Sequence record: MT446407.1
Direction: 5' to 3' (one strand)
DNA length: 64,000 nt
Source: Escherichia virus TH34
A program made the translations under genes and the position numbers. Positions 15,228 to 63,936 of the stretch are shown here, piece after piece. Each line of letters opens with the position of its first letter. Position 1 is the first letter of the stretch. The notes beneath the pieces were generated by a model that had not been told where the DNA came from, searched no databases, and worked only from the letters and a program-made list of their open reading frames with translations.

Positions 15228-15234
15228 GTTCACT

Positions 15235-15526: not shown

Positions 15527-15532
15527 GAGCAC

Positions 15533-17340: not shown

Positions 17341-17360
17341 CCTACAATAAAGAACATATA

Positions 17361-17394: not shown

Positions 17395-17448
17395 ACTAGT
17401 GCATTGATTCAGTGTACTAATCAAAGAAACTAAAAAGAGATAAACACC

Positions 17449-18100: not shown

Positions 18101-18170
18101 GTTATTTGGTTAAGCCTTGCTATGTGGTAAGGCTTGCACGATATAATTTATCAGCGAAAGGAATAAAGCA

Positions 18171-18614: not shown

Positions 18615-18855
18615 GCCTCTTCTCTGTACCAGTAGTCAACTACTATGACGCTCTTCTTGAGCGTCTTTGTGTCTGCCGCCTTTGTGCGGCTTTTTGCGTA
18701 GCTAGTGATGCCTAAAGGGCACTCCCTTTGTGAATCATTGGCATGGTTCAATCCCTATTGGATGGTCATTTGACCGGGCCTTTAACGAGGCCGCTTTTTT
18801 AAGAGTCTTTACGAGGATTCTTAAATGAGTGAGGTCATGTTCACTCTTTCAGGTC

Positions 18856-18882
18856 GCCCCGTCTTCGGATGGGGCTTTTTTA
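18856..18882 (+). terminator. rho-independent terminator
   Basis: gccccgtc-ttcg-gatggggc followed by ttttttat. Confidence 0.6.
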
Positions 18883-18909
18883 TGCCCGTAAAACAGGAGG
18901 TAGTAAGTT

Positions 18910-19320
18910 CTGATAACGACAGCCCAGCTACTTTTGACATTGACTATTTATTATGAGGCAGGGAATCAGCCAACCGCTTGCAAAGCATTAGTAGCGGATA
19001 CCGTAATAAACAGAATGTCACAACGAAAACTGACTGCCGAGCAGGTTATAAACCAACGAAACCAGTTCGAGTGGATACCCGTCTTATTAAAGAAGGAGAA
19101 ACCTTTCAAACGTTATGTAAAGCTAATTCGTGATGATAATCCCCTGATAAAGAAGTCAATCAGAGAGAGCGAGCGGCTTGCAAGGCGTGCACTGAAGAAA
19201 AGTTATGTGCCTTTATACAGTGGTACATACTTTCAGAGTAAGAGCGAAGGGGTGCCAAAGTGGTATACCAATCCAATGTATTGTGGTGATTTAGTGTTCA
19301 ATAATAGTGCCCGTGACTGA
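18910..19320 (+). CDS. SleB/CwlJ-like cell wall hydrolase (start codon uncertain, non-ATG)
   Basis: YYEAGNQ, VADTVINRM, NQRNQFEWI, SERLARRAL, PKWY segments match the CwlJ/SleB family pattern; no in-frame ATG or GTG after stop at 18904; AGGAGG at 18895-18900 is 9 nt upstream of CTG 18910. Confidence 0.55.
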   Translation: MITTAQLLLTLTIYYEAGNQPTACKALVADTVINRMSQRKLTAEQVINQRNQFEWIPVLLKKEKPFKRYVKLIRDDNPLIKKSIRESERLARRALKKSYVPLYSGTYFQSKSEGVPKWYTNPMYCGDLVFNNSARD

Positions 19321-19521
19321 TTCATAGGTGCCAAGATTGACAAACTAAATTTCCTTATAAATCACCTACTTATGATTTTCTCTGCAAAAAGTGGTAGTGA
19401 TTCGGAACCAGAGGTAATGACTGTATATAGACCTCTGAAAATTATTGATAGAAATTAAGTTTAGAAATAATAAATTCTAAATAATATTTCTTATAATATC
19501 TTACTTTAAGAGGATAAAGAT

Positions 19522-36027: not shown

Positions 36028-36270
36028 ATGTTGTCTATCGAAGATTTGATCAGTCGTGGAATGACCGAACAAAAAGAACCTCTGATTGTTGGTTCTCGTA
36101 AAGCTATTAACCAACTCTGTGAAGAGTTTGGAATCACAAACAAGAGAATGATTGGTAATCAGTTCTCTGCAATTGTCACCTTCCTTAAACGAGGTGATAA
36201 ATATTCAATGGAATGTGTTGAGCGTATCATCGCAATTGCACAAGAAGATAAGGGAGTAACAACTCTGTGA
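36028..36270 (+). CDS. hypothetical small protein
   Basis: 80-aa ORF. Confidence 0.4.
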   Translation: MLSIEDLISRGMTEQKEPLIVGSRKAINQLCEEFGITNKRMIGNQFSAIVTFLKRGDKYSMECVERIIAIAQEDKGVTTL

Positions 36271-36517: not shown

Positions 36518-36949
36518 ATGTCTGATAAAGTATTAGTAGCAACTTACGGCAGCTTGAGAAAAGGTCAACACAACCACGCTATCAATGCTCGTGCCGGTGG
36601 TGTGTCTATTGGTGAGGGTTGGACAGTGAACAACTGTAACCTGTATCAGTATTGCACAGCATACTTCCCAAGTGTGTCTCTGGAGCACGACAGCAATGGC
36701 AAGCCTGTTCGTGTGGAAGTATTTGAAACAACTCAAGCTGGTTTGGAAGGTCCGTATGACGGTCTGGAAGGTTATCGTGGTAAAGACAATCCATACACTT
36801 TCTACAATCGTACACTAATTCCAGTAGTGCTGGATAGTGGTGAAACTGTGGAAGCATGGATTTATCATATCGACGAAGAACAAGATGTTCTGGTTGAATC
36901 TGGCGACTGGACAGCGTATCTGGCAGGTGATCAGGATGACAGTAACTGA
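36518..36949 (+). CDS. gamma-glutamyl cyclotransferase-like (AIG2/GGCT fold) protein
   Basis: 143 aa; N-terminal ATYGSLRKGQHNH (YGSL motif) and downstream DGLEGY with a candidate catalytic Glu. Confidence 0.7.
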   Translation: MSDKVLVATYGSLRKGQHNHAINARAGGVSIGEGWTVNNCNLYQYCTAYFPSVSLEHDSNGKPVRVEVFETTQAGLEGPYDGLEGYRGKDNPYTFYNRTLIPVVLDSGETVEAWIYHIDEEQDVLVESGDWTAYLAGDQDDSN

Positions 36950-37178: not shown

Positions 37179-38969
37179 ATGTCAAAGATCATTTTAGGGG
37201 ATACAGGTTGTAAAGAATGTATCTCTCATGGTCGTGATAAGACCCACAATCACATGATTCTCTTCCGAAACGAAGAGTCCGGTGAAGAGTGGGGCAGTTG
37301 TAATCGTTGTGGTAGTTATGAAGTTTTCGAAAAGGGAACAACTCCTACACCGAATGAAAAGAAAGAACTATCCCCTGAAGAACTCCGAGAGATCTTAGAC
37401 GATTGCTTAGAGCTGCCTCAGGGTGAGCTTACTCGTCGTTTGATTCCTAAAGCTGTCTCTGAACGGTATGAATGCCGTATTGGTTTGAGTCAGACAGATG
37501 GGCAAACTCCTGATAGTTACTTCTTCCCTCGTGAACGTGATGGAAACATTGTTGGTTATGAAGTTAAGCTTCTAGACAGCAAGAAATTCTATTACATCGG
37601 CAGTGTTAAAGAAGCTGACCTATTCGGTATGGCTCAAGCACAACGCGGGGACGTGTACAACAAGAAGCTCTTCATCTTTGAAGACCCACTCTCTTGTATG
37701 TCTGGCTTCCATGTGCTCACTGCGTTCACGAACGCTACAAACATCAAACCTGCGTGTGTATCTCTACCGTTTGGTGCAGGTTCAATCTCTTCCGTTCTCT
37801 CACGTAACCGTGACTTCTTGAATGGTTTTGAGGAGATTGTGCTCTGCATGGACAATGATGATGCAGGTGAGATTGCATTAACTAAAGGTCGTGCATTATA
37901 TCCCCATGTTAAATTTGCTCGTATTCCGAAAGGAACCTTCACTTACAATGGTCAAGAGAAGGAAATCAAAGATGCAAATGACATGTTACTCGCTGGTCGA
38001 GGTCAAGAGCTATTCAACAATCTGAAATATTCAGCGAAGCGGGAATCACCTGCTGGTGCTGTTACTGTCTTTGATTGTTTAGAAGACGCTCTGAAGAAAG
38101 CGGAATGGGGTATTCCTTATCCGTGGAAAACTCTGAATGAAATGACCTTCGGCATTCGTTGGGGAGAGATGGTTGCAATCGGTGGTGGTGTTGGTTCAGG
38201 TAAAACCTTAATCGCACACGAACTGGTAGCATGGCTTTGCCTTGAGCATGGTTTTAATGGTGGTGGCTTCTTCTTGGAAGAGAAGGTAGGCATGTCTGTT
38301 AAAAACATTGCAGGTAAATCAGCATCTGTACCTTTCCACCGACCTGATGTTGAATATGAGGAATCTCAGCTACGTGACGAAGCACTCCGTTACGCTGACA
38401 AGTTCTTCTTGTATGACAACTTCGGACAGAATGAGTGGGATGATATTAAGCAGTGTATTCGCTTCTGGGTAGTTGAGAATCAGTGTAAGTTTATCATTCT
38501 TGATAACATCACTGCATTAGTTTCTCACCTAACTCCATCTGAGGTGAATACAGAAATCAGTAAGATTGCTTCAGAGCTTGCTGGTATGTGTAAGGAATTA
38601 GACTTCACTGCTTTTGTATTATCTCACTTGAATGCTCCGGCAGGTGGTGCTCCTCACGAAGAAGGTGGGCAGGTGAAAGAAGTTCAGTTCACTGGTTCAC
38701 GTTCACTGATGCGTTGGTGTCAGTGCATCATCGGTTTTGAGCGAGATAAGCAAGCGGATGGGTTAGGCAAGAACTTGTCAATCATACGACTTCTCAAGGA
38801 GCGTAACTACGGTCAGACAGGTGTTTGCTACACCAAGTATATCAATGAAACAGGTCGACTTGTAGAACGAGAAGATCACGAAGTTGATGAAGCTAATCCG
38901 TTTGTCTTGACCAATGGTGAGGATGCAGCTTCTCTGCTCACACAAGACGGGGAGGCACGACCTTGGTAA
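37179..38969 (+). CDS. DNA primase-helicase (T7 gp4-like)
   Basis: 596 aa; N-terminal Cys4 zinc ribbon (CKECISHG...CNRCG), TOPRIM-like [10 protein letters not shown], DnaB-type Walker [10 protein letters not shown]. Confidence 0.85.
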
Positions 38970-42104: not shown

Positions 42105-42156
42105 TTGGTAGTAGATATGATAACTCTCAAATGTATATACAGTATAAGAATATTGT

Positions 42157-42504: not shown

Positions 42505-43063
42505 TAATGTCTTCGACTTACCTGAACTAACACGAGTGGGTTCTAGTAACCCATTCTCTACAACTGACTCCTCTATCTCTCGTCTTGAGGGAATGAATAA
42601 ACTGATCAGCGGTAACAGTCTAGAGCACATCCTATGCGGTGTGCAGGCTAACCTTGAGCTTCTACACATCAAAGCAAAGAATTACCACTGGAACGTCTCT
42701 GGAGCTGGTTTCCAAGGTGTTCATGGTATGTTCGATGAATTAGAAGACTATGCTCGTGAAACAGGAGACCGAGTAGCTGAGCGAATGCGTTATCACTGTA
42801 TCAAAGTGGATGCAACAGCTAGTAGCTATCTTAGTTGTGCTTGGTTCAGAGAAGGTAGTGCTGATCTCGACATGGACGGTATGCTTTCCGACATGTGCAT
42901 GACTCTGATGTGTATCATTGAAAAGATGGACGAGTTTGATTCAGACTTGTGCACTTATCCAGTAGACCAGAGTATGCTTCAAGAAATTAATGAAGGTCTT
43001 GGCAAGTTCTGTTACTTCGTCAAGAGCAACATGTCCCACTCTAGTGGCGATGTGTCTTACTAA
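42497..43063 (+). CDS. Dps/ferritin-like protein
   Basis: 188 aa; LELLHIKAKNYHWNVSGAGFQGVHGMFDELEDYARETGDRVAERM closely follows the Dps helix pattern (HW..G..F...H..FDE....D..AER). Confidence 0.55.
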   Translation: MHNNVFDLPELTRVGSSNPFSTTDSSISRLEGMNKLISGNSLEHILCGVQANLELLHIKAKNYHWNVSGAGFQGVHGMFDELEDYARETGDRVAERMRYHCIKVDATASSYLSCAWFREGSADLDMDGMLSDMCMTLMCIIEKMDEFDSDLCTYPVDQSMLQEINEGLGKFCYFVKSNMSHSSGDVSY

Positions 43064-46665: not shown

Positions 46666-47403
46666 ATGAATCGCAGAGAAACTCGTAGAGAAGCACGGAA
46701 AGCAGCTCGTCGTGGTGAACAGGTGACTAATAAAGGTAAACGTGAGTATCAAGAAGTTGTTCTCGCTAAGCCTGTAGTTCCTCAGAATCAGTTTCAATCT
46801 GAACTGCTCAATGCTATCAAGACTAAACAAGTAGTCTTTACGGATGCTCCTGCTGGATGTGGTAAGACTTATGTTATCACAACAACTGTTATTGATGCTC
46901 TGAAAAGTGGGAAGATTCAAAAGATCATCCTAAGCCGTCCTGCTGTTGGTATGGGTAATTCACTTGGGTTACTTCCCGGTGGGTTGCGTGAGAAGTTCGA
47001 ACCATACCTGATGCCAATCGTTGATGTTATCACTCAGCGTTACGGTAAAGGCTTCTACGAGTGTCAAATTGGTAATGGTAACATTGAGTTCGTACCTCTG
47101 GAATACCTCCGTGGTCGTTCATTCAATGACGCTATTGTGATTGTTGATGAGTTCCAGAACACTACTCCTGATGAAGCATATTCAATCATGACCCGTCTTG
47201 GTGAAACCTCTCAGATGTTCTGTATGGGTGATACTAACCAGCATGACATGCGTGGTGAGAGTGGTTTGGAATGGGCTACTGACTTCATTGATCGTCATGA
47301 CTTATTTGAGTTTGCTGCTTTGGTTGACGGTGAGTCAGATGATATTGTTCGTTCAGGTTTCTGTAAAGCTATTGTTAAAGCAATGGAATCTGAAAAATCC
47401 TAA
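46666..47403 (+). CDS. phoH: PhoH-like ATPase
   Basis: 245 aa; Walker A DAPAGCGKTYV and ILSRPAVGMGNSLGLLPGGLREKFEPYL matching the PhoH core. Confidence 0.85.
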   Translation: MNRRETRREARKAARRGEQVTNKGKREYQEVVLAKPVVPQNQFQSELLNAIKTKQVVFTDAPAGCGKTYVITTTVIDALKSGKIQKIILSRPAVGMGNSLGLLPGGLREKFEPYLMPIVDVITQRYGKGFYECQIGNGNIEFVPLEYLRGRSFNDAIVIVDEFQNTTPDEAYSIMTRLGETSQMFCMGDTNQHDMRGESGLEWATDFIDRHDLFEFAALVDGESDDIVRSGFCKAIVKAMESEKS

Positions 47404-47469
47404 ACATAATGTATACTCCTTAGTGTACACTGATATATTAAGGAGTTATGATGACTGATAAGGCAAAAC

Positions 47470-52827: not shown

Positions 52828-53448
52828 ATGGCTGAAGTTTACTTTGCAGGTGATGGTCACCTAGGCCATCGTAACATCTGTAATTTTAGAAAGAAGTTTA
52901 GCAGTATTGAAGAACATGACAAAGCTATCCTAGCAGCTTTTGACCATGTTACTAAACGTGATAAAACTTTCTTTACAGGTGATTGGGTGTTTGAGAGATA
53001 TGCACTTGATGTTATCGCTGAAGTAAAAGGAGAGAAACATCTTGTCCTAGGAAACCATGACAGATTAGAACTTCTCCCTGATATGATGAAAGTCTTTAGA
53101 CACATCAGTGGTGATTATAAATACAAAGAGTTTTGGGTAACTCATATTCCTATTCACTCTGATGAAATGAGAGGAAAGTATAATATCTATGCTCATACTC
53201 ATAACTCTACTATTAAAGATTGGAGATACTTTTGTACTTCTATGGAACAAATTGATTATAGAGCTGTGTCTCTGCAAGAGATTAGAAAAGAACTGGAAAG
53301 TAGGAAAGAGTGGGTAGCTTCTTTATTACAAAAAGATTATCCAATTACCAGCGAAGTACAAGAGATGTTAAGCAAGCAAGCTGAATCTAACTTACCTTTT
53401 CAGAGAACAGTAGAACAAACTAGCTTTAAAGGTCTTTTAGAATGGTAG
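52828..53448 (+). CDS. calcineurin-like metallophosphoesterase
   Basis: about 206 aa from ATG 52828; motifs YFAGDGHLGH, GDW and LGNHD. Confidence 0.65.
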   Translation: MAEVYFAGDGHLGHRNICNFRKKFSSIEEHDKAILAAFDHVTKRDKTFFTGDWVFERYALDVIAEVKGEKHLVLGNHDRLELLPDMMKVFRHISGDYKYKEFWVTHIPIHSDEMRGKYNIYAHTHNSTIKDWRYFCTSMEQIDYRAVSLQEIRKELESRKEWVASLLQKDYPITSEVQEMLSKQAESNLPFQRTVEQTSFKGLLEW

Positions 53449-53459
53449 AAGTTATTGTT

Positions 53460-53790
53460 TTTAAGTTAAGTTAATTAGTTTTCTTTTGATTTTAATAGAG
53501 AATCAAAGTCCTAGGAGTCCTCAACCTAAATCAAGGATTTCCTTAATTCTCTATTTTTATCTCGCAGGTGTCTCCTGCCCTTCGGTACTTGCAAGGGTTA
53601 CGATGATTGCCCAATATACAAGCCTGCAATAGCTTTACTAGCTATACCATATATACATTACTACTTACTATTATCTACTACCAAAAAGGTTATAGTATAA
53701 TAGAACCTTATCTGTATAGGTGTAATGTATATAGTATACCAACCGCTCAAAGAGAGCAACAATCTTGAATTTATATAAGGAAATATTAAT
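53460..53790. promoter_or_regulatory. structured AT-rich intergenic region (candidate replication origin or phage-specific promoter)
   Basis: inverted repeat tagagaat...attctcta around palindrome tcctagga (53506-53554); GC hairpin ctcgcaggtgtctcctgcccttcgg; iterated tacta/tatag words; TATAAT at 53696. Confidence 0.3.
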
Positions 53791-54531
53791 ATGTCTATGA
53801 TCCCTGAACTGTCTGTATCCCGTAAATCCAACTACGATGTAATCCCTGATGGCGAGTACGAAGCACGCATTGTTCGTGTAGTAGGTTTAGGTGTTCACAA
53901 TCGTGACCCTTGGATTGACCCTAAGACCAAAGCAGTTACTCCTAAGAACCCAGCTTTCCGTATGGACTTGGCATTTGAACTGATTGGTGTTGATGCTACT
54001 GGCACAGATAATGATGGTAAGGCATTGGACCCACGTCCTGCTTGTCAGTTTAAATCCTTCGATGTAAACCCACGAGCTAAGAACTCTGGTATTCTGAACC
54101 TAATTAAAATGATCGACCCAAGTGTTCAAGCACTGAAAGGTGATTTGGGTTGGTTCAAAGATATGCTGCTTGGTCAGCCTGTCAACATTCTGGTTAACTC
54201 TTACACCAACAAAGCTGGTGAGAAGAAAAACTCTATCAAGAGCATCACTCCAATCCCAACTAAGTATCGTGATGCTGTAGGTGCTCCTCGTAGTGAGTTG
54301 ATCTTCTTCGAACCGTATGCTGAAACTGACGCTAACTTGGCTGCTTATCAAGCTATGTTTCCATTCCAACGTAACCTTCTGACCCAAGCTAATGATGCTA
54401 AAAACATCCCTCTGGCTGGTCGTGAAGTTACTCGCGCTTCTGACACTGAACAGAAAGACGCGACTCCAAGTATCCCTACTATTAATGAAGAGCCGCAATC
54501 TACCTTTGAAGAAGATGACAGCCCTTTCTAA
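53791..54531 (+). CDS. single-stranded DNA-binding protein (T7 gp2.5-like)
   Basis: 246 aa; ITPIPTKYRDAVGAP resembles the gp2.5 core as recalled; acidic C-terminal tail ending FEEDDSPF. Confidence 0.55.
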   Translation: MSMIPELSVSRKSNYDVIPDGEYEARIVRVVGLGVHNRDPWIDPKTKAVTPKNPAFRMDLAFELIGVDATGTDNDGKALDPRPACQFKSFDVNPRAKNSGILNLIKMIDPSVQALKGDLGWFKDMLLGQPVNILVNSYTNKAGEKKNSIKSITPIPTKYRDAVGAPRSELIFFEPYAETDANLAAYQAMFPFQRNLLTQANDAKNIPLAGREVTRASDTEQKDATPSIPTINEEPQSTFEEDDSPF

Positions 54532-54552: not shown

Positions 54553-54578
54553 TTAGCCACCTTCGGGTGGCTTTTTTC
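54553..54578 (+). terminator. rho-independent terminator
   Basis: tagccacc-ttcg-ggtggctt followed by ttttcg. Confidence 0.6.
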
Positions 54579-54590
54579 GTTGGAGTTAAA

Positions 54591-54938
54591 ATGGAAAAGC
54601 TTCAAAACAATATCGGCTTCTTAGTCTTTACAGCCCTTGTATTCTTTGGTGGGATGAAGTTTGAGCAATATCGAAATGATAGTAACACTCTTGACCAAGA
54701 GAAGAAACAACAAGAGATTGAGATTGAGAGAGCTAAGGCTGCTGATGAAGTAGCTCAGAAAGTTCTTACCAGTATAACCAACTGGAAGAAGAACACAGAA
54801 ACTATTTATAAAGAGATGCATTATGAAAAGACTAAGCCAGTTTTTTACAATGTGTGCGCTAGCGATGAGTATGTCAGCTTGTTCAACGAGCGACAACAGC
54901 AGGCAGCTAATGCCCTTACCAACAAACCTAAAAGCTGA
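54591..54938 (+). CDS. i-spanin (Rz-like)
   Basis: N-terminal TM (IGFLVFTALVFFGG) then charged coiled coil; contains the embedded o-spanin start in another frame. Confidence 0.6.
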   Translation: MEKLQNNIGFLVFTALVFFGGMKFEQYRNDSNTLDQEKKQQEIEIERAKAADEVAQKVLTSITNWKKNTETIYKEMHYEKTKPVFYNVCASDEYVSLFNERQQQAANALTNKPKS

Positions 54939-55083
54939 GTGTGATGTTGATCTCCCTTTGCTTCAGAGTGCACAGGGAGTGGCATTTGCAACAACATTAG
55001 AGTGGTATCAGGACAACTACACAACCTGTGCTGCTAACCATAATGGTTTACTGAAAGCTCTCAAGGAGAGAGGAATACAATGA
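54823..55083 (+). CDS. o-spanin (Rz1-like lipoprotein)
   Basis: signal peptide with lipobox MSAC; Pro-rich mature region; overlaps the 3' end of the i-spanin gene. Confidence 0.6.
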   Translation: MKRLSQFFTMCALAMSMSACSTSDNSRQLMPLPTNLKAECDVDLPLLQSAQGVAFATTLEWYQDNYTTCAANHNGLLKALKERGIQ

Positions 55084-55304
55084 TCAGAGCGGAACTTACA
55101 ATACCAGAAGGTGTTACTCAACTTCATGCAGTATGGGAATATAATAATCAGGTTTGGGGACGAACTTTTAAATTCTTTGTAGATGGAGATCAATCCTATT
55201 GGGCCTATTACGACCCTGAAGAAGATATGTGGATTAAGGTAAGTGGTATTCAGACAGCCATCCCTTGTCCTGACACAGCAATGTATTTGTTCTGTGTAGT
55301 TTAA
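55080..55304 (+). CDS. hypothetical small protein
   Basis: 74-aa ORF. Confidence 0.4.
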   Translation: MIRAELTIPEGVTQLHAVWEYNNQVWGRTFKFFVDGDQSYWAYYDPEEDMWIKVSGIQTAIPCPDTAMYLFCVV

Positions 55305-55328
55305 TATAAAGTAAGTTAAGGACGACTT

Positions 55329-55979
55329 ATGAAGAAGAAGACAACACCCACACGCTATCGTATTCATGGCATTCCTATTAAATATTATCCAACCTTCGAT
55401 GAATTCTATCGAGAGAACTGGAAAGTTGTGCATCGCTATTTTATGTATGACATTAAAGATTATCACGAAGCAGAGGATGTTGCTCAGGAAGTATTACTGA
55501 ACGCTTGGCGTTTTGTGTTTGCAAAGCAAGAAGAACTTCTGCTCGCTGATGAAAAAGATATTGAACACATGACTTATCGTGTTAAGAATATCATCTGGTC
55601 TATTCGTTCTAACCGTCAGACAGTTGGAGATCGACGTATCTACTCTATTCCAGAGGCTGATATGTTTAGACCTCCTGAGATGAACTCATGGGAAAGTCCT
55701 TTAGAGATTGCGATGGATAAGCATGACTCTACTGGAGACCCCTTCTTGGAATCTAGAATCTTTTTCTTCTTCCAAGACTTAAGTGATATTATGGATACCA
55801 AGAAAATGGCAAGCATGTTCTCTATGCTCTTCCTTGGAATACCTCACGATCACATCCAGCAAGAGCTGGGAATTTCACACGGAACTTTCTATCGCCGATA
55901 TGCAGAGAATCGTGATCTGTACGAAGCTGTAGTAGAGAAGCACTTTGATAAAGAAGATCTTCAAGGGATGATTCAATAA
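55329..55979 (+). CDS. phage-encoded ECF-like sigma factor
   Basis: 216 aa; region-2-like [20 protein letters not shown] and C-terminal HTH-like [19 protein letters not shown]. Confidence 0.55.
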
Positions 55980-56575
55980 TGAGTAAACCATTAGTAGTAA
56001 TTCTGAATGGACCACCGGGTTGTGGTAAAGATACAATCGCTAATGCTTGGTTAGAGAAGACCGTCGGTAACACTGAGTTTAGGCCGCATGTAAAGGCTTT
56101 TAAGGAGCCTATGTATCGAGTGGCTGCTGCTGCATTAGGACTTCCTCTTTATGAGTTCATGGAGCTATACAACGATCGTGAGTGGAAAGAATATAGCCGT
56201 CCTGAATGGGGCGGTAAGACAGTTCGAGATTTAATGATTGCGACTAGTGAGAACTACCTGAAACCAATGTTTGGTGACACCTGCATGGGTAAGCTTGCTG
56301 TTAGCAGTATTCAACAACGCATCCCAACACAGAATGATGTTATTGTATTCTCTGATGGTGGATTTAAAGCAGAAGTTGAAGAACTGGAAAAACATTTCCA
56401 TGTTCGAGTAATTCAGATTCATCGTGATGGCTGTACTTTTGAAGGAGACTCTCGTTCCTATATTGAAGGCGCGAACCTTTCAACCTACCTTCTCTTTAAT
56501 GATTGTTCTATAGAAGAGGCGGTGGAGTATTTAGAATACAGTATTGCACAGACACGGAGAGATCTCTATGCCTGA
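55979..56575 (+). CDS. P-loop kinase (deoxynucleoside monophosphate kinase-like)
   Basis: 198 aa; N-terminal Walker A VVILNGPPGCGKDT. Confidence 0.5.
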   Translation: MSKPLVVILNGPPGCGKDTIANAWLEKTVGNTEFRPHVKAFKEPMYRVAAAALGLPLYEFMELYNDREWKEYSRPEWGGKTVRDLMIATSENYLKPMFGDTCMGKLAVSSIQQRIPTQNDVIVFSDGGFKAEVEELEKHFHVRVIQIHRDGCTFEGDSRSYIEGANLSTYLLFNDCSIEEAVEYLEYSIAQTRRDLYA

Positions 56576-57399: not shown

Positions 57400-57591
57400 A
57401 TGGGTAAATTTGACTATCGTTCGTATGATGAAAATTCCTCTAATCGTGAGTCTCGTAAAGACCAGAAGATTAAACACCAAGCATTTGATCGTCGTACAGG
57501 ACGTATCCCTCGTGCTGAAAAAGAATCACATCGTATTAACAAACGTATTTGGGAAGATGCTGACATGGATGTAGGTTATGGAGAAAGCTGA
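57400..57591 (+). CDS. hypothetical small basic protein
   Basis: 63-aa ORF. Confidence 0.35.
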   Translation: MGKFDYRSYDENSSNRESRKDQKIKHQAFDRRTGRIPRAEKESHRINKRIWEDADMDVGYGES

Positions 57592-58030
57592 GAAAACTAG
57601 ATGCTCTTTTAGTTATAACCCGGAGACTGGATTGTTCTCCGGACTTTCTATATACACTGACAGAGATGGTTATCTGTACACTTTTATTGATAGAAAGAAT
57701 TTCCGCTTGCACCGATTGGTTTTTCTTTTAGAAGGTGAAGATATTTCTGGAAAACTTATAGATCACATTGATGGTGATAGGCAGAATAATAAAAGAAATA
57801 ACTTAAGGCTTGTAAACTCTCAAGAGAATACCTACAATAAAAGAGTAGGAAGAAACAATACTACCGGACATAAGGGAATTACTCAAGAGCCAAATGGTAA
57901 GTGGAGAGCTAGGATTTCTGCAAACAAGAAAAGATATTCTCTAGGAGTGTTTGATTCTTTAGAAGAAGCTGTTGCTGCTTTAAGTGAAGAGAGACAAAAA
58001 CTACATGGAGAATATGCAAATGAAGGCTGA
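57578..58030 (+). CDS. HNH homing endonuclease with AP2-like region
   Basis: 150 aa; DHIDGDRQNNKRNNLRLV and GKWRARI. Confidence 0.65.
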   Translation: MEKAEKTRCSFSYNPETGLFSGLSIYTDRDGYLYTFIDRKNFRLHRLVFLLEGEDISGKLIDHIDGDRQNNKRNNLRLVNSQENTYNKRVGRNNTTGHKGITQEPNGKWRARISANKKRYSLGVFDSLEEAVAALSEERQKLHGEYANEG

Positions 58031-58421
58031 AAAAACCAGATGTTCAAATCAGTGGACTGAAGCACGATACAATTCCTTCATCAAGTCAGGGATTCGTTCT
58101 CTCACTAGAAAGTGGAAGCCTATGTTTGACTCTCTTAAAGAGGCTCAGACAGAGCGTAAGATCAACCCCAAAACTGGTAAACTGGCAATGCACTATAAGT
58201 GTGCCATGTGCGGTAATGACTCTCCTCTTAAAGAGGTAGCTGTTGACCATATCAACCCTATTGTTCCAGTGGACCATGCAGCTTCTTGGGATGAAATCAT
58301 CGAGAGAGCTTTGGTTGAAGTAGATGGCTTTCAAGTCTTGTGTAAAGAGCCTTGTCATAAGATTAAAACTAAGGAAGAGAATGATGCAAGACGAGAATTT
58401 AAAAAATCTAGAGACTCCTGA
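58020..58421 (+). CDS. HNH endonuclease (start uncertain, 58005-58020)
   Basis: Cys-rich CAMCGN...DHINP...CHK HNH core; N-terminus shares KAEKTRCS with the upstream HNH gene. Confidence 0.55.
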   Translation: MKAEKTRCSNQWTEARYNSFIKSGIRSLTRKWKPMFDSLKEAQTERKINPKTGKLAMHYKCAMCGNDSPLKEVAVDHINPIVPVDHAASWDEIIERALVEVDGFQVLCKEPCHKIKTKEENDARREFKKSRDS

Positions 58422-58798: not shown

Positions 58799-61700
58799 TT
58801 ACTCCTTAGCTCGAACTCTAACACGGAGTTTAGCTTGACGCTTACTTCTCTCCAACTTGTCAGACAGAGAACCACGTTTGACTTTCAACTCTCCCTCGTC
58901 ATTATACTTCTCCAAGAACTGTAAATACTCTTGTCGAGTAGTTGTCTTGTAAGAAGGAATCTTAACATCAGGATTCTCTTCAATCACACGTCTAATCTTC
59001 GCCACATCATCCCGCCCTAAAAGTTTCCCTTTAGCTTGTTCAGCAGTAGAACCAAAGATTTTCTCCAGTGCTCTAGATTTGTTACCACCCGCTGAAGCAG
59101 CACCAAGTTTCGCAATAGCAGAGTAATCATCAGCACTAAACCAAGCCACTGGATTATCTCCATATTGTTTCTTGTTCTCCGCAGCAGTTTGTAAAGCACG
59201 CACAAAGCGACGGTTGTTACCAGCCTTATCAGCACCATGAACTCTATCTAGAACCTCTGCTACACTAGCCAGTTCCTGCAAGTCTTTACCTTCGATAAAA
59301 GCTTTCTCTGCTTTGTTAGCAAAGTCATCTTCCTGCTTCTTAATGCTTTCCAGTATATCAGAGGAGGCTTGAGATCTTTCATCTTCCGGCAACGCCGAAC
59401 GAACTTTCTCCATTTCCAACTCTTCATCCTGAAGTTTCTTCAACTCAGAATCTACCTTCCTAGCATCTTCGATAGCTTTCGAAGTATCTGCATCTACCTC
59501 TACCTTCCCATCCATATCACCAGTTGCCTTAGCAATATCTTTCTCGATTGGTGTCATCTTCTCAAAATCCTTAGCAAACTTTGAAATATCCGACTCAATA
59601 CGAGAACGAGCATTCTGGTGCTCAGTAGGAGTCATAGGTTTCTCCAGAAGAGAGTAACGGTTATCCATATAAGAACCTGCAAAGATTTCTGCATCTTCTT
59701 TAGGAATCCCTTTATCCTCCATAGAACGCATCAGGCGCTTATGAATGTCATCACGTTGACGTTGTATTGCCATGCGATCGTTCTCTGCTTCCTGAGCTTC
59801 TTTGAGCTTCTTGTCACGTTGTACACGGGAATCAATGTCGTATTTACGGTTCATCTCTTCCGCCTGTTCGTACATCTTATTCCACTTAGCTTCTCGAGCA
59901 TCTTCTTCCGCTTCAGTGAGACGACGCTTACGGTCGATGTAATCACTTTCTGCGTTGTGGATACGTTCGATAATACTACGGAAACGCTCCGGTGGTACAG
60001 GAGAGTTTTTCTCGTGGTGAGCTGCTAACTGTTTCAGTGTACGACCTTCCTGAGCCTCACGTACCGACTCTGGTAAATCTTTCAACAGGTTCTCCATCTC
60101 CGATTTCTGAGCCGCTATAGCCTCGAGAGACTGTCTTTCTGTCTCTACTGCTGCCTTGGCATCACTACGAGCTTTAGCCCTGTTACGGAGCGTCTCAAGA
60201 CGTTCTTGACGTGCTTGCAAATGTTTAGCTGCTGCTTCGTACTGAGAGTTCTTATTAGCTTTGTTGAACATGTTAACTTCACGGTTATATGTGTTAATGA
60301 AGCCATCCCATATATCCTTCATCTGTCCCACTTCCAAAGCATCTTCCCTTCCAGCCTTCTCTGAAGCTTTAAACTTCCCATCTACAAAGTCTTCCATCAA
60401 CTTACGCATAGCATCTTTTTGAGCTGGACGTAATGGCTCTGCATCAAGAAGTAGATTGATTTCGCTGTGTAACTCTTTCTTCTGGTCAACCAGCTTAGGA
60501 GCATCAGCTTTATCAAGCTTTTTATTCTCTGCAAGAGCTTCTTCATACATCCTATTAAACTCATCATCACGTTGTTTCTGATACAGACGTTCAGACCTAC
60601 GCTTCAGTGAATCTAGACTAGTCACGTTTCCTCCAATACCTTTCTCCTCAGCACGTAATGCCTTGGTAGCAATATCAGAAGGTAGACCACGTTCCTTAAC
60701 CCAATCAGCAAACGAAGAACGAACACGTTGTGACTTAGCAGCAGCAATACCCTGTTGAGAAGCAAGCTGGTTACGAGCCATCTCAGCATGGCGTTCAGCA
60801 TTGTTAGCTTGGTCTTCCTGACGGATACGACGCATCAACTCTTTCGGGTCGCCTTTATAAGAAAGGAAGTTCTCAGCTGTGGCTTTAGCCTTAGCACCTG
60901 CCGTATACAGAGAACGAGCAAAGCGATCTGCACGATCTTTAGTAGCTTGACGGGCAGCACTTGACATAGCAGCCAGACGCTCTATTCCAGTAGCTGGTTT
61001 AACAGGCTCAGGCTCAATCTCAGGAGCTTTAGGAGCACGGGTAGGTAATGGCTCAGCTTGAACTGTAGGCTCCTCAGGAACGCTCTCAGCAGCCTTGCTA
61101 GCCTCTTCTGCTTCTTGACGTTTACGAGCTTCTGCAACAGCACGACGTTGGGCAACTAAATCCCTTGCGGTAGTAACTGGTTCTTGTGGAACTGGCTCTG
61201 GAGTTGGTTCTTCCTGAACCCTGTTAGCTTCGGCTTCTTGACGTCTAGCTTCAGCTTCCTTCAAAGCACGTCTCTGTGCGACCAAATCACGAGCAGTTAA
61301 AGGAGAGGTTTCTGGAGAGGAAATTTCTTCCGTCACAGTAGTAGCAGAAGGCTCCCGAACCGGTTCGATTTCCGTGTCATTTTGAGTCTTAAATTTAATG
61401 TCATCAACTTCAGGTTCTTTCTCCATCGCAGCACGGGCTTCATCAGCCTGAGCACGAGCACGAGTTACTTCCATATCACTACGAGCAAGAGAACGAATAG
61501 CTTCACTGTTAGCAGCCTGCTGGCTTTCGCGTTGAGAGCGAGCACGGTCAGAACGGAAACGGTTAAGAACATGCTTAGCAGCACCAAGAGGATTCTTAAT
61601 CAGAACTGGAGGAGCAGCTTCTTTAAAACCATCAGCAGTCAGAGAAGTCCAACCACGGTCTTGATTACTCATTAACTTAGCTGTATTATTCAGAGTGAAA

Positions 61701-63217
61701 GCATCTTGGATTGGGTTGAAACCTTCAGGCATTCCTTTAAGTTTCTTCAAACCACCAATAGCAGTTTTCATTTCTGGAGATACATTATCAGCCAGTTTCT
61801 GAAGCTCTGTAGCTTTCTCTATGAAGTTATTAAAGTCTTCACCATCACGAGCTTTGAATCGATTAGCTTCGTTATAGAAAGTTTTATAAGCATCAATGAA
61901 ATCACGATCTGCTTGGGTACGATTCTTAATGTCCATAGCACTACCAGTAAAATCACCACTGGCACGAGCAGCTATTAATTCACGATCAAGATTATCCAGA
62001 ACATCAGACAGAGATTTAGTGTTGTCTTTTGTATAATCAGCCATTGCATCTTTCATTGCCACAGCTTGTTTCTGGTTATGTTCGTTGTCTGCGTTAGCTT
62101 TACCTTGCTTTTTATTAGGAGCAGCAAGAGGATTTAAACCCGGAACATTAGAACGATCTTCCAGAATAGTAGCAGCCTTCTCAGCACGACTTTGATCAGT
62201 ATTAAGGATACGCTGAGCAGCAGGGGAGTCCATAGCCACAGCATCAGTAACACGGAAACCGTTCTCATCGAGGAGGTTAAGAGCGGAAGCTGTGTTAGCG
62301 TTATCAGCTTTAGAGTAAGCCTCTCTTAGTTCGTCTGCATTTTTAGCTGAGCGAATAGCTTCATCTTCAGCGGCAATGTCAGTCTTAACGTGTTCTGGAG
62401 TACGGTCAAAGACTTGAGGACTAGGACGACTTATCAATCCATGAACCCCACCGATAGCCCCACCGTAAGCAGCACCCATCGCACCTTCTTCTACAGCACC
62501 TTCAATAATGTTAGCAAGAGTAGTGTCATCACCATATTTGTTCTGTGCTTCAGCAGCACCTACAAGAGCACCACCTTTAGCACCAGCCACTGCGTTAGAT
62601 GCTACACTCTGACCAACACGACCTAGAGTAGTAGAAGCAGTTCCTGTCATCCCCGGAAGAATCTTCTGAGCTGCAAAGTTAGCACCACCAACTAGACCAG
62701 CATCAAGAACAGACTTCTCTTCACCCTCTTCTGGAGTTTGGTCCGCATAAGCCCTACCTGTTTCACGAGCTGCAATAACAGCAGCAGCTACAGCTGGGTT
62801 AGCGACCGTAAGACCGATATCAGCGGCAACGCCAGCATACTGACCTACAGATTTACCTACACCATCTTCGATTTGAGAAAGACGTTCTTCTAGTAAGTTT
62901 TTAGAGTTGTCTTGAATACGCTTACCATAACTTGTCTGTGTACCAGCTAGATTTTCTCCAATCTCAACTAATCCACCAATACCTCTAGCAGCACTAGCTG
63001 CAATGTTTGCACCACCTGATTGAATAGCGTTGGACACACCTTGGGCAAAATCACCAACCAACCCCGGTTGCTCTTCTTGTTTAGGAGCTGGAGCAGCCTC
63101 AGGAATCGTTCCACCCGCTGCTTTATACTGTTCTCGCATCTGAGACTGTTGCTCAGGGGAGGCATTCAAATACGCAGGGCTTTTAGAAGCTTCTTCCCAC
63201 GGTTTTAAGTTAGCCAT
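58799..63217 (-). CDS. large virion protein (tape-measure or internal ejection-protein-like)
   Basis: 1472 aa; Gly/Ala-rich N-terminal region, extensive coiled coil, internal duplicated segment TARDLVAQRRA...EAE. Confidence 0.5.
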   Translation of the reverse strand: MANLKPWEEASKSPAYLNASPEQQSQMREQYKAAGGTIPEAAPAPKQEEQPGLVGDFAQGVSNAIQSGGANIAASAARGIGGLVEIGENLAGTQTSYGKRIQDNSKNLLEERLSQIEDGVGKSVGQYAGVAADIGLTVANPAVAAAVIAARETGRAYADQTPEEGEEKSVLDAGLVGGANFAAQKILPGMTGTASTTLGRVGQSVASNAVAGAKGGALVGAAEAQNKYGDDTTLANIIEGAVEEGAMGAAYGGAIGGVHGLISRPSPQVFDRTPEHVKTDIAAEDEAIRSAKNADELREAYSKADNANTASALNLLDENGFRVTDAVAMDSPAAQRILNTDQSRAEKAATILEDRSNVPGLNPLAAPNKKQGKANADNEHNQKQAVAMKDAMADYTKDNTKSLSDVLDNLDRELIAARASGDFTGSAMDIKNRTQADRDFIDAYKTFYNEANRFKARDGEDFNNFIEKATELQKLADNVSPEMKTAIGGLKKLKGMPEGFNPIQDAFTLNNTAKLMSNQDRGWTSLTADGFKEAAPPVLIKNPLGAAKHVLNRFRSDRARSQRESQQAANSEAIRSLARSDMEVTRARAQADEARAAMEKEPEVDDIKFKTQNDTEIEPVREPSATTVTEEISSPETSPLTARDLVAQRRALKEAEARRQEAEANRVQEEPTPEPVPQEPVTTARDLVAQRRAVAEARKRQEAEEASKAAESVPEEPTVQAEPLPTRAPKAPEIEPEPVKPATGIERLAAMSSAARQATKDRADRFARSLYTAGAKAKATAENFLSYKGDPKELMRRIRQEDQANNAERHAEMARNQLASQQGIAAAKSQRVRSSFADWVKERGLPSDIATKALRAEEKGIGGNVTSLDSLKRRSERLYQKQRDDEFNRMYEEALAENKKLDKADAPKLVDQKKELHSEINLLLDAEPLRPAQKDAMRKLMEDFVDGKFKASEKAGREDALEVGQMKDIWDGFINTYNREVNMFNKANKNSQYEAAAKHLQARQERLETLRNRAKARSDAKAAVETERQSLEAIAAQKSEMENLLKDLPESVREAQEGRTLKQLAAHHEKNSPVPPERFRSIIERIHNAESDYIDRKRRLTEAEEDAREAKWNKMYEQAEEMNRKYDIDSRVQRDKKLKEAQEAENDRMAIQRQRDDIHKRLMRSMEDKGIPKEDAEIFAGSYMDNRYSLLEKPMTPTEHQNARSRIESDISKFAKDFEKMTPIEKDIAKATGDMDGKVEVDADTSKAIEDARKVDSELKKLQDEELEMEKVRSALPEDERSQASSDILESIKKQEDDFANKAEKAFIEGKDLQELASVAEVLDRVHGADKAGNNRRFVRALQTAAENKKQYGDNPVAWFSADDYSAIAKLGAASAGGNKSRALEKIFGSTAEQAKGKLLGRDDVAKIRRVIEENPDVKIPSYKTTTRQEYLQFLEKYNDEGELKVKRGSLSDKLERSKRQAKLRVRVRAKE

Positions 63218-63282
63218 AATTTCTCCTTATAAATAAAAATGTCCTACCTCCTATATACATTATAAGAGATAGGACTTAGGTC

Positions 63283-63936
63283 TTACTGAGTCATCCAATC
63301 AGTGTTAGAAGACAAAGCACCATTAAGTTTAGGATTGGTTGCTGAACCACCAACAGCTGCTTCAGACTCTGCTTCGAATACACCGAGAGGGTCATAGAAA
63401 CCAGCAGAAGGAATAGCTCGGTTAACAAGAGCAGTTGCACGTTTCTTGTCCATACCAGAACCAACATAAGCTTCAATAGTTGCTTTCTTAGAATCCTTAA
63501 CACCTTTCTCAGCAGAAGAAGCACCAACAGTTGCTTGCTTACGGGCATAGGAAAGAGCGGCATCGGATGGACGATAACCAGCTTTAAGAGACCAAGTGTT
63601 ACCTACCTTAACAAGAATGGATGGGTCTTCTGCGAAGTGTGACAAGTCATCAGCTTGCAGAGAACGGTTAGCGCCAATCTCAGCTCTTGCGGAGTTCATA
63701 ATAGCCTGCATGTAAGCAGAACGAGCAGTCTGATAATCACCATCCTTAACTGCTTTGTCTGCCAAATCCAAGTCTTTATGAGACTGGTTAAACAGTCCTG
63801 CCTTCTCTGCCCACTGTTTAGCAACCGTACCTTCAGCAGTGTTCTGAGCAAGACGAACTTCTTTCGGGTTAAAGTTAAAACTTTGAGCAGCTTGTTCTGC
63901 ACGGTCTGCCTTAACTTGATCACGATAACCAATCAA
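63283..63936 (-). CDS. virion-associated protein (may extend beyond the window)
   Basis: 217-aa ORF upstream of the large virion protein; minus-strand coding appears to continue to the window edge. Confidence 0.4.
   Translation of the reverse strand: MIGYRDQVKADRAEQAAQSFNFNPKEVRLAQNTAEGTVAKQWAEKAGLFNQSHKDLDLADKAVKDGDYQTARSAYMQAIMNSARAEIGANRSLQADDLSHFAEDPSILVKVGNTWSLKAGYRPSDAALSYARKQATVGASSAEKGVKDSKKATIEAYVGSGMDKKRATALVNRAIPSAGFYDPLGVFEAESEAAVGGSATNPKLNGALSSNTDWMTQ

Follow-up and report, generated by a model that had tools for sequence, protein, structure and literature searches.

An orthologue of the phiEco32 sigma factor gp36 and its predicted promoters in a Suseptimavirus-like coliphage

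We analysed a 64,000-nucleotide stretch of Escherichia virus TH34 (MT446407.1), henceforth referred to as the window, and conclude that the open reading frame (ORF) at 55329-55979 (+) almost certainly encodes a gp36-type sigma factor of a phiEco32-like coliphage (Gordonclarkvirinae, Suseptimavirus lineage) that works by the mechanism proposed below. Our analysis established orthology to gp36, retained contact residues, a homologue of the partner protein gp79, the promoter motif at six syntenic sites and the lack of a phage RNA polymerase (RNAP). The binding of gp79 and the sigma factor, promoter recognition, the start sites at six promoters and the division into temporal classes come from work by others on phiEco32 (PMC8948821, PMC12276001), and we infer the same biochemistry for the phage analysed here. 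The window DNA is that of a Suseptimavirus/Kuravirus-like coliphage. It is 97-98% identical to phages TH42 and Bas88 and collinear with phiEco32 at 70-87% identity (typically ~77%).

An ORF with exactly these coordinates is present; it starts with ATG and encodes 216 amino acids. In phage Bas88, which is 97% identical, the gene at this position is annotated as 'RNA polymerase sigma factor'. The product is 81% identical to phiEco32 gp36 over 215 amino acids, and it matches PHROG 1740 ('RNA polymerase sigma factor', E = 3e-44). Using phmmer, we aligned its residues 1-215 with residues 1-213 of the solved phiEco32 gp36, chain F of PDB 9m7y, which bears the title 'RNA polymerase ECF sigma factor' (E = 4.7e-119). 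The Pfam model Sigma70_r2 matched residues 26-61 with 20.3 bits, below its gathering score of 24 (E = 4.9e-4), and there was no Pfam match to Sigma70_r4 or r4_2 even at E ≤ 10. The NCBIfam model TIGR02937 (sigma70-ECF) aligned over residues 23-191 and scored 20.5 bits against a cutoff of 42.9. The first-pass annotation had described regions 2 and 4 as recognisable; in the HMM search this holds marginally for region 2, below threshold, and region 4 can be seen in the solved structure only. Because the protein falls short of the curated Pfam and NCBIfam thresholds and there is no Sigma70_r4 match, the sigma status rests on the solved homologue, and the full-length match to the gp36 chain is the decisive evidence for the predicted sigma identity. 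The predicted domain layout is a sigma2-like N-terminal domain, a long linker and a sigma4-like C-terminal domain. Sigma2-like and sigma4-like folds, with a linker threading the active-site cleft, were reported for gp36 (PDB 9m7y; PMC12276001).

With E. coli core RNAP, to which it binds, the phiEco32 protein initiates transcription at tAATGTAtA promoters (PMC12276001). We took the contact residues of gp36 and gp79 from the same study and read off their conservation in the window proteins. The acidic patch that contacts the clamp helices (D44, E47, E49, D50, E54) is identical between the two sigma factors, as are all of the residues that read the -10 element (E79, H80, Y83, R84, W90, S91, S94, N95). 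Y186 and R187, which contact positions -34 and -37, respectively, in the solved holoenzyme (PMC12276001), are also identical and are numbered Y188 and R189 in the window protein. Among the flap-tip-helix contacts, I142, F166, L167 and F204 are unchanged, the sole difference being Leu in place of M138. The groove that receives gp79 is retained as well, with identical residues at F146, M164, L167 and I169. The two proteins differ in 19% of residues, including M138L and a two-residue insertion in the linker.

By analogy with phiEco32, a second player that is probably essential, and that the first-pass annotation had left out, is the gp79 homologue encoded at 36028-36270 (+). This 80-residue protein is 80% identical to phiEco32 gp79, belongs to PHROG 8339 and matches the solved protein (PDB 9m7y_G/9m7z) with E = 9.7e-39. 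Its contact residues are kept or conservatively replaced (L6I, V10I, L29I, W36F); in the N-terminal helix, L9 and M14 are unchanged and both L6 and V10 are I. In phiEco32, gp79 displaces region 4 of sigma70 and sigmaS from RNAP and stabilises the C-terminal domain of gp36; the gp36 holoenzyme transcribes the promoter P26 in vitro, and gp79 stimulates this ~4-fold (PMC12276001).

We searched the window for the published gp36 promoter motif, tAATGTAtA, centred at -11.5 (PMC8948821, PMC12276001). In the raw count, 9-mer matches allowing up to one mismatch were no more numerous than expected by chance (22 observed, 18.8 expected), and the AATGTA core was not enriched in the window (42 observed, 45 expected). 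Exact copies of TAATGTATA occurred four times in the window against 0.76 expected. Among the 9-mer matches, exactly six AATGTA-core sites are intergenic and co-oriented with the downstream gene, and they are syntenic with P6, P13, P26, P40, P58 and P68 of phiEco32. The gap at 53449-53790 was judged intergenic with the help of the Bas88 annotation. The promoter signal is carried by exact matches, position and synteny only. The AATGTA-core sites at 4918, 10408, 17845, 22301, 31075 and 61779 were rejected as chance occurrences, being inside coding sequence and unmatched in phiEco32. The same six gp36-type promoters were already predicted in print for ECBP2, a phage of the same genus (PMC8948821).

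Three of the six correspond to late promoters. The P13 equivalent is TAATGTATT (-15 to -7) at 2586-2594 (-), syntenic with phiEco32 9101-9109, where the sequence is TAATGTATA; its predicted start site is 2579, it is intergenic with a start codon 34 nt further on, and an upstream box, TAAGACCTA, lies at 2609-2617. The P6 equivalent, TAATGTAGA at 10350-10358 (-), has the sequence and context of phiEco32 1677-1685, directly follows a terminator hairpin (10374-10392) and has a predicted start site (10343) 5 nt from the ATG of the gene at 9862-10338. P6 is entered as TAATGTAgA in Table S3 of PMC8948821. The P26 equivalent, TAATGTATA at 63254-63262 (-), is syntenic with phiEco32 26014-26022; with a predicted start site at 63247 and the upstream box TAAGACCTA at 63277-63285, it drives the 1472-residue gene at 58799-63217. 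The first-pass annotation had expected late promoters with a distinct, unidentified motif. A distinct motif is present, and it is the published one. Among the places proposed for such promoters, those at ~2560 (P13) and 58.8-64 kb (P26) were borne out and those at 11650, 5680 and 8170 were not; P6, the remaining late promoter, lies at 10350-10358. P13 and P26 have in common TAAGACC at -38 to -32. A literature text search for TAAGACC together with phiEco32 gave no match, the phiEco32 work being represented by PMC8948821, PMC4281155 and PMC12276001.

The other three are middle promoters, and by analogy with phiEco32 the sigma factor would drive middle genes as well as late ones. The P68 equivalent is AAATGTATA at 42129-42137 (+), syntenic with phiEco32 46862-46870, with a predicted start site at 42144. 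Within its -35 box, TGGTAGTAGATA (42106-42117), lie -37G and -34A, the bases that R187 and Y186 of gp36, respectively, touch in the solved complex (PMC12276001). The P58 equivalent, TAATGTATA at 47407-47415 (+), is syntenic with phiEco32 42937-42945 and has a predicted start site at 47422. The P40 equivalent, TAATGTATA at 53723-53731 (+), is syntenic with phiEco32 36632-36640, has a predicted start site at 53738 and is invariant in seven genomes. It heads the unit that runs from the gp40 homologue through the spanins and a 74-residue ORF to the sigma gene.

Host-type promoters were also assessed. Sites resembling sigma70 promoters (≥10/12) were not enriched in the window (16 versus 19.2 ± 4.5 in shuffled sequences), so the many consensus early promoters claimed at first do not stand out overall. 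What remains of that claim is four plus-strand sites with a perfect TTGACA -35 element at the head of the early genes, with one-to-one counterparts in phiEco32, in which four early promoters head the early cluster (PMC8948821). The site at 12523-12550 (TTGACA-16-TATAGT) precedes the first early gene (12596-13459) and corresponds to phiEco32 76888. The other three, within 14968-15526 (+), start at 14968 (TTGACA-16-TAAGAT, with TG), 15200 (TTGACA-16-TAGAAT, with TG) and 15498 (TTGACA-17-CATAAT) and correspond to phiEco32 74426, 74226 and 73736.

The lack of a T7-like RNAP gene in the window was confirmed. A tblastn search with T7 RNAP gave a best E value of 1.3 in the window, 0.25 in complete Bas88 and 0.46 in complete phiEco32, and Pfam detected no RNAP domain in the eight largest unassigned ORFs. 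A diverged, cryptic phage RNAP could nevertheless be imagined to transcribe the late genes, leaving the sigma factor to the middle genes only. The candidate would be the 1472-residue protein (58799-63217), for which the N4 virion RNAP offers a parallel, and it has no Pfam family and no solved homologue in the PDB and belongs to a PHROG of unknown function. However, neither the window nor the two complete relatives show T7 RNAP similarity, the middle-promoter motif recurs in the late promoters P6, P13 and P26, and the candidate gene itself lies behind P26, the promoter that the gp36 holoenzyme transcribes in vitro with ~4-fold stimulation by gp79. We consider this explanation very improbable and rejected the 1472-residue protein, which has no Pfam, PDB or T7 RNAP similarity, as a hidden RNAP.

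More improbable still is that the gene is a moron encoding an ordinary bacterial-type ECF sigma factor, which would use AAC/CGT-type ECF promoters and take no part in the phage temporal programme. The weak similarities of the protein are indeed to ECF models (TIGR02937, PRK09645 and SigL, PDB 6dv9; E from ~1e-6 to 0.15, mostly over residues 22-63), and they include region 2.1-2.2 of bacterial ECF sigma factors. Yet every ECF model is far below its cutoff, and the protein is below every curated ECF threshold (Pfam Sigma70_r2, TIGR02937). The gene belongs, moreover, to the core set: all 98 relatives found have it at ≥80% identity; its orthologue transcribes phage middle and late promoters (PMC8948821, PMC12276001), and the cognate motif is at six syntenic phage promoters in the window. 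Bacterial ECF (group 4) sigma factors such as M. tuberculosis SigL (PDB 6dv9) share the sigma2-linker-sigma4 layout without regions 1.1 and 3. In contrast to them, the gp36 type has a more compact C-terminal domain in which helix 4 is short, is turned by ~100 degrees where it binds the flap tip helix, recognises AATGTA as its -10-like element in place of an ECF-type motif and is paired with a stabilising co-activator instead of an anti-sigma factor (PMC12276001). We give just as little credence to a non-sigma helix-turn-helix (HTH) repressor or activator acting on the sigma70 holoenzyme, as the TetR-type matches that suggest it (Pfam TetR_N HTH, residues 176-201, E = 0.1; a TetR-family PDB entry, residues 164-204, E = 0.3) lack significance, the solved holoenzyme has the DNA-recognition helix of its sigma4-like domain in this very stretch, and the sigma2 clamp-helix contacts of the N-terminal domain are all kept.

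The preferred reading, a gp36-type sigma factor acting together with gp79, would operate as follows. Early genes would be transcribed by the host sigma70 holoenzyme from the four strong promoters at 12.5-15.5 kb, and the gp79 homologue (36028-36270) and the sigma factor would be expressed via read-through. The gp79 protein would bind the RNAP clamp and insert its N-terminal helix into the RNA exit channel, displacing region 4 of sigma70 and sigmaS, and this displacement would shut off host and early transcription. The phage sigma factor would then occupy core RNAP: its N-terminal domain would contact the clamp helices, its C-terminal domain would sit on the flap tip helix, and the N-terminal helix of gp79 would hold the sigma factor there. 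The sigma factor would recognise tAATGTAtA (-15 to -7) together with a -35 region contact and drive the middle promoters at 42129, 47407 and 53723 and the late promoters at 2586, 10350 and 63254. As P40 lies upstream of the sigma gene, positive feedback would result. The first-pass proposal that an ECF-like phage sigma factor redirects host RNAP, with no phage RNAP and a separate late motif, describes what was demonstrated for phiEco32 (PMC8948821, PMC12276001), and the window protein, its 81%-identical orthologue with all DNA-contact residues kept, bears it out.

The neighbourhood of the sigma gene bears on its expression. Directly upstream is a 74-residue ORF in place of the macro-domain gene gp37 of phiEco32. 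In phiEco32 a sigma70-like promoter (TGGACA-18-TATAAT at 34861) lies in front of gp36; because the upstream cassette differs, the window lacks this promoter, and no sigma70-like site (≥10/12) was found on the plus strand between 52.5 and 56.2 kb. Since that promoter is missing, the first sigma molecules would be made by read-through. A terminator-like hairpin, AGCCACC-TTCG-GGTGGCT followed by T6, lies at 54555-54572 (+) between the gp40 homologue and the spanin and sigma genes, and transcription from P40 can get as far as the sigma gene only by passing this hairpin. We rejected as a chance match an apparent autoregulatory gp36 promoter, CAATGTATT at 55279-55287. It lies 41 nt upstream of the sigma ATG, has -37G and -34A, and falls in Ala-Met-Tyr codons of the upstream ORF; ECBP2 has CTATGTATT there, and such a site is missing in lineages with another cassette upstream of the sigma gene. 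The spanin pair (54567-55083) comprises an Rz-like i-spanin (54567-54938, +) and an overlapping second ORF (54823-55083, +) at the position annotated as O-spanin in SU7. Judged by eye from its translated sequence, the product of this second ORF has what we take to be a lipoprotein-type N-terminal signal. The spanin genes are the only lysis genes near the sigma gene, so the placement next to lysis genes proposed earlier applies to them and not to the holin and endolysin, which in Bas88 are encoded at 13724-14464, beyond the portion of the genome that the window covers.

The gp36-type system and its promoter motif are already known, and the present case is a rediscovery. Work on phiEco32 in 2008-2012 established the sigma factor gp36, its co-factor gp79, the tAATGTAtA promoters and a division into three temporal classes (Savalia 2008, Pavlova 2012, as cited in PMC8948821, PMC4281155 and PMC12276001), and the gp36/gp79 cryo-EM structure followed in 2025 (Xu 2025, PMC12276001). 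The phiEco32 system (PDB 9m7y, 9m7z; PMC12276001) resembles that of the window in its orthologous sigma factor of the same length class, all DNA contacts, the core contacts except M138 (Leu here), the gp79 partner, the promoter element at the same six positions, the four early sigma70 promoters, the genome architecture and the lack of a phage RNAP. It differs in that phiEco32 is a Kuravirus, whereas the window is Suseptimavirus-like and its sigma factor has the two-residue linker insertion. Salmonella phage 7-11, of the same broader group, also directs host core RNAP to late genes with a phage sigma factor, gp47, from promoters at equivalent genome positions (PMC8948821). However, gp47 is only ~15% identical to gp36 and uses a bipartite promoter, GTAAtg-(16)-aCTA, and phage 7-11 has no gp79 homologue, host shut-off or middle class (PMC8948821). 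The window is clearly of the gp36/gp79 type and not of the 7-11 type. Comparable redirecting logic is found in the phage late sigma factors T4 gp55 and SPO1 gp28 and gp33/34. In T4 AsiA/MotA, too, region 4 of sigma70 is put out of action by a small phage protein, and a specificity factor turns host RNAP towards the genes of the following temporal class (PMC12276001), but there sigma70 is remodelled, whereas here it would be replaced outright by the phage sigma factor, and there is no sequence or structural relationship.

The practical value of the result lies in annotation. The sigma gene is still labelled 'hypothetical protein' in the close relatives SU7, IME267, 4E8 and MLP3, and the SU7 genome paper states that the expected sigma factor was not found. 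The window allows the whole regulon to be annotated by transfer, including the sigma factor, gp79, the six promoters and the four early promoters.

Possibly new biology is limited to the two classes of upstream box and to a candidate for a seventh gp36-type promoter, which faces away from P40, is missing from the published promoter list and is accompanied by a conserved, structured non-coding region. The candidate (53652-53683, -) combines an exact TAATGTATA at 53652-53660 with TGGTAGTAGATA at 53672-53683 in the same register as in P68; its predicted start site is 53645 (-), and its orientation is opposite to the flow of the middle genes. It is kept in every relative examined. The TGGTAGTAGATA box is common to this site and P68, and in the window, Bas88 and phiEco32 the exact 12-mer occurs only at these two promoters. 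We suggest, tentatively and at a rather low probability, that this unlisted promoter starts a non-coding RNA at 53645, which could be a regulatory or antisense RNA dependent on the gp36-type sigma factor or could serve as the primer at a replication origin; independently of this, and just as tentatively, the two upstream boxes could encode the distinction between middle and late promoters or dependence on gp79. Downstream of the promoter, a highly conserved non-coding stretch at 53478-53645 (-) is a candidate structured RNA. An Rfam search of 53350-53850 returned only noise and no family for it; in the window as a whole, only the tRNA reached gathering level. The predicted fold (z = -2.8) consists of a 5' hairpin (+1 to +17), a GCAGG/CCUGC hairpin and a long 3' stem-loop. 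Pairing in the 5'-terminal hairpin is kept by compensatory changes among the 15 distinct sequences compared, and it includes G-U pairs that become C-A mismatches on the opposite strand. The 3' stem-loop is nearly invariant among genomes that are only ~77% identical overall.

We found that the ORF at 55329..55979 (+), which the first-pass annotation had placed exactly, has an ATG start and encodes a 216-aa protein; its stop codon overlaps the start of a dNMP kinase gene (55979-56575). The 216-aa protein shares 81% identity with the phiEco32 sigma factor gp36 along its full length. Among solved structures it hits the gp36 chain of the cryo-EM model 9m7y, whose deposited name is 'RNA polymerase ECF sigma factor' (E=4.7e-119), and among phage protein families PHROG 1740 (E=3e-44), named 'RNA polymerase sigma factor'. 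The earlier interpretation of a phage sigma factor redirecting host RNA polymerase (RNAP) was thus right in substance, given a gp36 orthologue and its cognate promoters. The claim that sigma regions 2 and 4 are recognizable held weakly for region 2 (Pfam Sigma70_r2, residues 26-61, 20.3 bits against a gathering score of 24) and failed for region 4: the Pfam search gave zero Sigma70_r4 matches in the protein, and the C-terminal signal consisted of a non-significant TetR-type helix-turn-helix alone (residues 176-201). NCBIfam TIGR02937 (ECF superfamily) aligned to residues 23-191 but scored 20.5 bits, below its cutoff of 42.9; all three curated sequence thresholds for sigma70/ECF family membership were missed. 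The label "ECF-like" is therefore owed to the architecture and the solved homologue structure and not to HMMs. Using tblastn, we detected the sigma factor in 98 phage records, exclusively of Escherichia or Shigella phages; as every one is at least 80% identical, we count it among the core genes of these phages. It is already annotated as a sigma factor in Bas88, ECBP2 (RefSeq) and EK010, and still as "hypothetical" in SU7, IME267, 4E8 and others. The gp36-type sigma system found here is already known.

Around the sigma gene, DNA identity is 98.3% with Escherichia virus TH42, 97.1% with phage StefiGeyer_Bas88 (Bas88) and 94.5% with ECBP2, which NCBI taxonomy assigns to Suseptimavirus, Gordonclarkvirinae. 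Bas88 is collinear with the whole window in reversed orientation, and phiEco32 (type Kuravirus) is also collinear, with 70-87% identity per aligned block and typically ~77%. The window comprises late structural genes (1-11.7 kb, -), early and then middle genes (12.5-58.7 kb, +) and a second block of late genes (58.8-64 kb, -). About 13.9 kb of the ~76.6-kb genome, equivalent to Bas88 10267-24169, lie outside it and include tail genes, the holin and the endolysin. The sigma gene had been described as next to the lysis genes; the spanins are indeed adjacent, but holin and endolysin belong to the late cluster, in the part of the genome that the window lacks. The physical genome ends map within 11760-12400, an interval flanked by the equivalents of phiEco32 144-465 and 76368-77029. 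Compared with phiEco32, the source assembly is thus a circular permutation. A tRNA gene at 23393-23465 (+; Rfam RF00005, 72.5 bits) sits where Bas88 and phiEco32 have an annotated tRNA-Arg.

In phiEco32-infected cells, gp36 and gp79 co-purify with RNAP. The sigma70 holoenzyme transcribes the early genes from four promoters heading the early cluster, and the gp36 holoenzyme transcribes the middle and late genes from six mapped promoters (middle, P40, P58 and P68; late, P6, P13 and P26) that have the motif tAATGTAtA in common, with AATGTA centred at -11.5; gp79 inhibits the sigma70 and sigmaS holoenzymes and increases gp36-dependent transcription 3- to 4-fold (PMC8948821, PMC12276001). In the 3.4 Å open complex, the sigma2-like N-terminal domain of gp36 binds the clamp helices via D44, E47, E49, D50 and E54 and reads the -10-like element with E79, H80, Y83, R84, W90, S91, S94 and N95; the linker runs through the cleft like sigma3.2, and the C-terminal domain, compact and sigma4-like in fold, sits on the flap tip helix, with R187 and Y186 contacting -37G and -34A (PMC12276001). 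The N-terminal helix of gp79 lies in the RNA exit channel, where without gp36 it drives out sigma70 region 4 and with gp36 sits in a hydrophobic groove of the C-terminal domain (F146, M164, L167, I169) (PMC12276001).

Residue mapping showed that all DNA-contact, clamp-contact and gp79-groove residues of the window protein are identical to those of gp36. The flap contacts contain a single change, M138 to Leu, and among other differences the linker is two residues longer than in gp36 through an insertion. Given this conservation, gp36-like promoter specificity and gp79 dependence are expected of the window protein, and by analogy we infer that the gp36 mode of action would carry over from phiEco32. 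The partner gene, integral to the switch and overlooked by the first-pass annotation, lies at 36028-36270 (+) and encodes an 80-aa homologue 80% identical to gp79 (E=9.7e-39 against 9m7y chain G and the 9m7z gp79 chain); its contact residues are kept or conservatively replaced (L6I, V10I, L29I, W36F). Judged by sequence, the window protein agrees with the gp36 family in every testable respect: it is homologous to gp36, keeps the contact residues and comes with the cognate promoters and the partner. The sigma factor of phage 7-11 is a different case, sharing ~15% identity with gp36, working without gp79 and recognizing the bipartite promoter GTAAtg-(16)-aCTA. The gp79/gp36 pair finds a functional parallel in T4 AsiA/MotA.

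The late-promoter motif, which had been called unidentified, is the published tAATGTAtA. Exact TAATGTATA occurs four times in the window against 0.76 expected. With one mismatch allowed, the 9-mer has 22 matches where 18.8 are expected; the raw match count is uninformative, and the signal lies in position. About 11% of the window is intergenic, and exactly six of the one-mismatch 9-mers have the AATGTA core, are intergenic and are co-oriented with the next gene; intergenic status was taken from the Bas88 annotation, as a mechanical gene map had treated the 53449-53790 gap as coding. Each of the six corresponds by synteny and sequence conservation to a mapped phiEco32 promoter, and the same six are listed for ECBP2 (Table S3 of PMC8948821). 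Start sites were predicted from the published register, in which the 9-mer spans -15..-7. On the minus strand are P13 (2586-2594, TAATGTATT; phiEco32 9101; predicted start 2579), P6 (10350-10358, TAATGTAGA; phiEco32 1677; predicted start 10343) and P26 (63254-63262, TAATGTATA; phiEco32 26014; predicted start 63247). On the plus strand are P40 (53723-53731, TAATGTATA; phiEco32 36632; predicted start 53738), P58 (47407-47415, TAATGTATA; phiEco32 42937; predicted start 47422) and P68 (42129-42137, AAATGTATA; phiEco32 46862; predicted start 42144). Late promoters with a distinct motif had been anticipated correctly, and P40, P58 and P68 extend sigma-driven transcription to middle genes, beyond that late-only scope. 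The proposed locations near 2560 and in the right-hand late block proved sound, but those at 11650, 5680 and 8170 did not (P6 is at 10350). Only 11 nt separate the end of P6 from the ATG of the gp6 homologue (10338-10358, -), and the predicted start would leave a 5-nt leader that excludes the AGGAG Shine-Dalgarno. P6 transcripts would therefore be nearly leaderless, or the true start codon would lie further downstream; the arrangement in phiEco32 is the same.

The abundance of consensus sigma70 early promoters previously described applies to the head of the early cluster, where four sites have a perfect TTGACA (12523, 14968, 15200 and 15498, +), but not to the window overall, in which 16 sites scored at least 10/12 against 19.2 ± 4.5 in shuffles. 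The phiEco32 counterparts (76888, 74426, 74226 and 73736) agree with the four early promoters reported for that phage. Three of the four window sites (14968, 15200, 15498) are near-consensus promoters within an ORF-poor early region of ~2.7 kb (13700-16440) that also contains several terminator-like hairpins (14178, 14262, 14436) and corresponds to a ~2-kb unannotated gap in Bas88 (70129-72280) and phiEco32 (72787-74730). The reported absence of a T7-like RNAP was confirmed: tblastn with T7 RNAP gave no match in the window, Bas88 or phiEco32 (best E=0.25 in the relatives and 1.3 in the window), and a domain scan of the eight largest unassigned ORFs turned up no RNAP domain. The product of 58799-63217, a late protein of 1472 aa, is without assignable function; its gene lies behind P26, which the gp36 holoenzyme transcribes in vitro (PMC12276001). 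Two phiEco32 RefSeq entries, 38784-38912 (phi32_50, 42 aa, 'RNA polymerase') and 35656-35919 (phi32_127, 87 aa, 'polymerase'), look like annotation artefacts and not polymerases, and their names could mislead searches for a phage RNAP.

The phosphoesterase gene and the gp40 homologue are separated by 342 bp (53449-53790), which hold, besides P40, an opposite-strand candidate promoter with exact TAATGTATA (53652-53660, -). Its upstream box TGGTAGTAGATA (53672-53683, -), at -38..-27, is identical in sequence and register to that of P68 (42106-42117, +) and contains -37G and -34A, the gp36 contacts in the structure. The window, Bas88 and phiEco32 each have two exact copies of this 12-mer, at P68 and at the divergent promoter. 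In IMG/VR the composite pattern was found in five contigs only, all as long as Kuravirus-like genomes, and in four of them it occurs twice on opposite strands. Element and box are kept in seven diverse relatives, even with ~150 bp inserted between the divergent promoters. The late promoters P13 and P26 have a box unlike the P68 type, TAAGACC(TA) at -38..-30 (2609-2617 and 63277-63285, -), whose TAAGACC (-38..-32) was common to both in all three genomes compared. Bas88 and phiEco32 keep both box classes in the same register; the classes may bear on whether a promoter is middle or late, or on its need for gp79. Set against the published phiEco32 work cited here, the divergent promoter, absent from the published list, may be new, and so may the box classes.

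Downstream of the divergent promoter is a conserved structured non-coding stretch (53478-53645, -). Across seven genomes that are ~77% identical overall, 85% of columns in 53480-53600 are invariant. The stretch folds somewhat better than shuffles (z=-2.8) and matches no Rfam family. Its 5' hairpin, which would start at the predicted +1, was compared across isolates and metagenomes, 15 distinct sequences in all. Compensatory changes at two of its six pairs (5 cells) keep the pairing, and in seven of the 15 sequences there is a G-U pair, which on the opposite strand would read C-A. This hairpin together with an invariant second hairpin had a covariation score above those of 500 of 500 shuffles and every slid control. 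The central module is swapped between lineages, and the nearly invariant 3' stem-loop has TAGGGACT twice with a 10-bp period in most relatives. We propose that the divergent promoter drives a candidate gp36-dependent non-coding transcript, on a small sample of 15 closely related sequences; the transcript might act in antisense regulation or prime an origin, and its (-) strand shows no evident terminator.

P40 is followed by the gp40 homologue, a terminator-like hairpin (54555-54572), the spanin pair, a 74-aa ORF and the sigma gene; once made, the sigma factor could thus reinforce its own expression. The gp40 homologue (53791-54531, +), the first gene behind P40, belongs to PHROG 6599 and has no Pfam match. 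Its C-terminus is acidic, with Phe as the last residue (...EEDDSPF), which recalls single-stranded DNA-binding proteins of the T7 gp2.5 type. Immediately before the sigma gene, 55080-55328 (+) carries a cassette that varies among relatives: the 74-aa ORF in the window, ECBP2 and SU7, gp37 with its macro domain in phiEco32 and, in EK010 and E20-1, an ORF of 112 aa. Whereas phiEco32 has a sigma70-like TGGACA-18-TATAAT at 34861, directly upstream of gp36 and in or beside gp37, the window has the 74-aa ORF in place of gp37 and has lost this promoter. Overlapping ORFs of 150 and 145 aa downstream of the exonuclease gene (57578-58421, +) include at least one HNH endonuclease homologue. HNH/homing endonuclease insertions around the sigma/spanin region vary among relatives, lying for instance between the spanin genes in SU7 and E20-1 and after the kinase gene in ECBP2.
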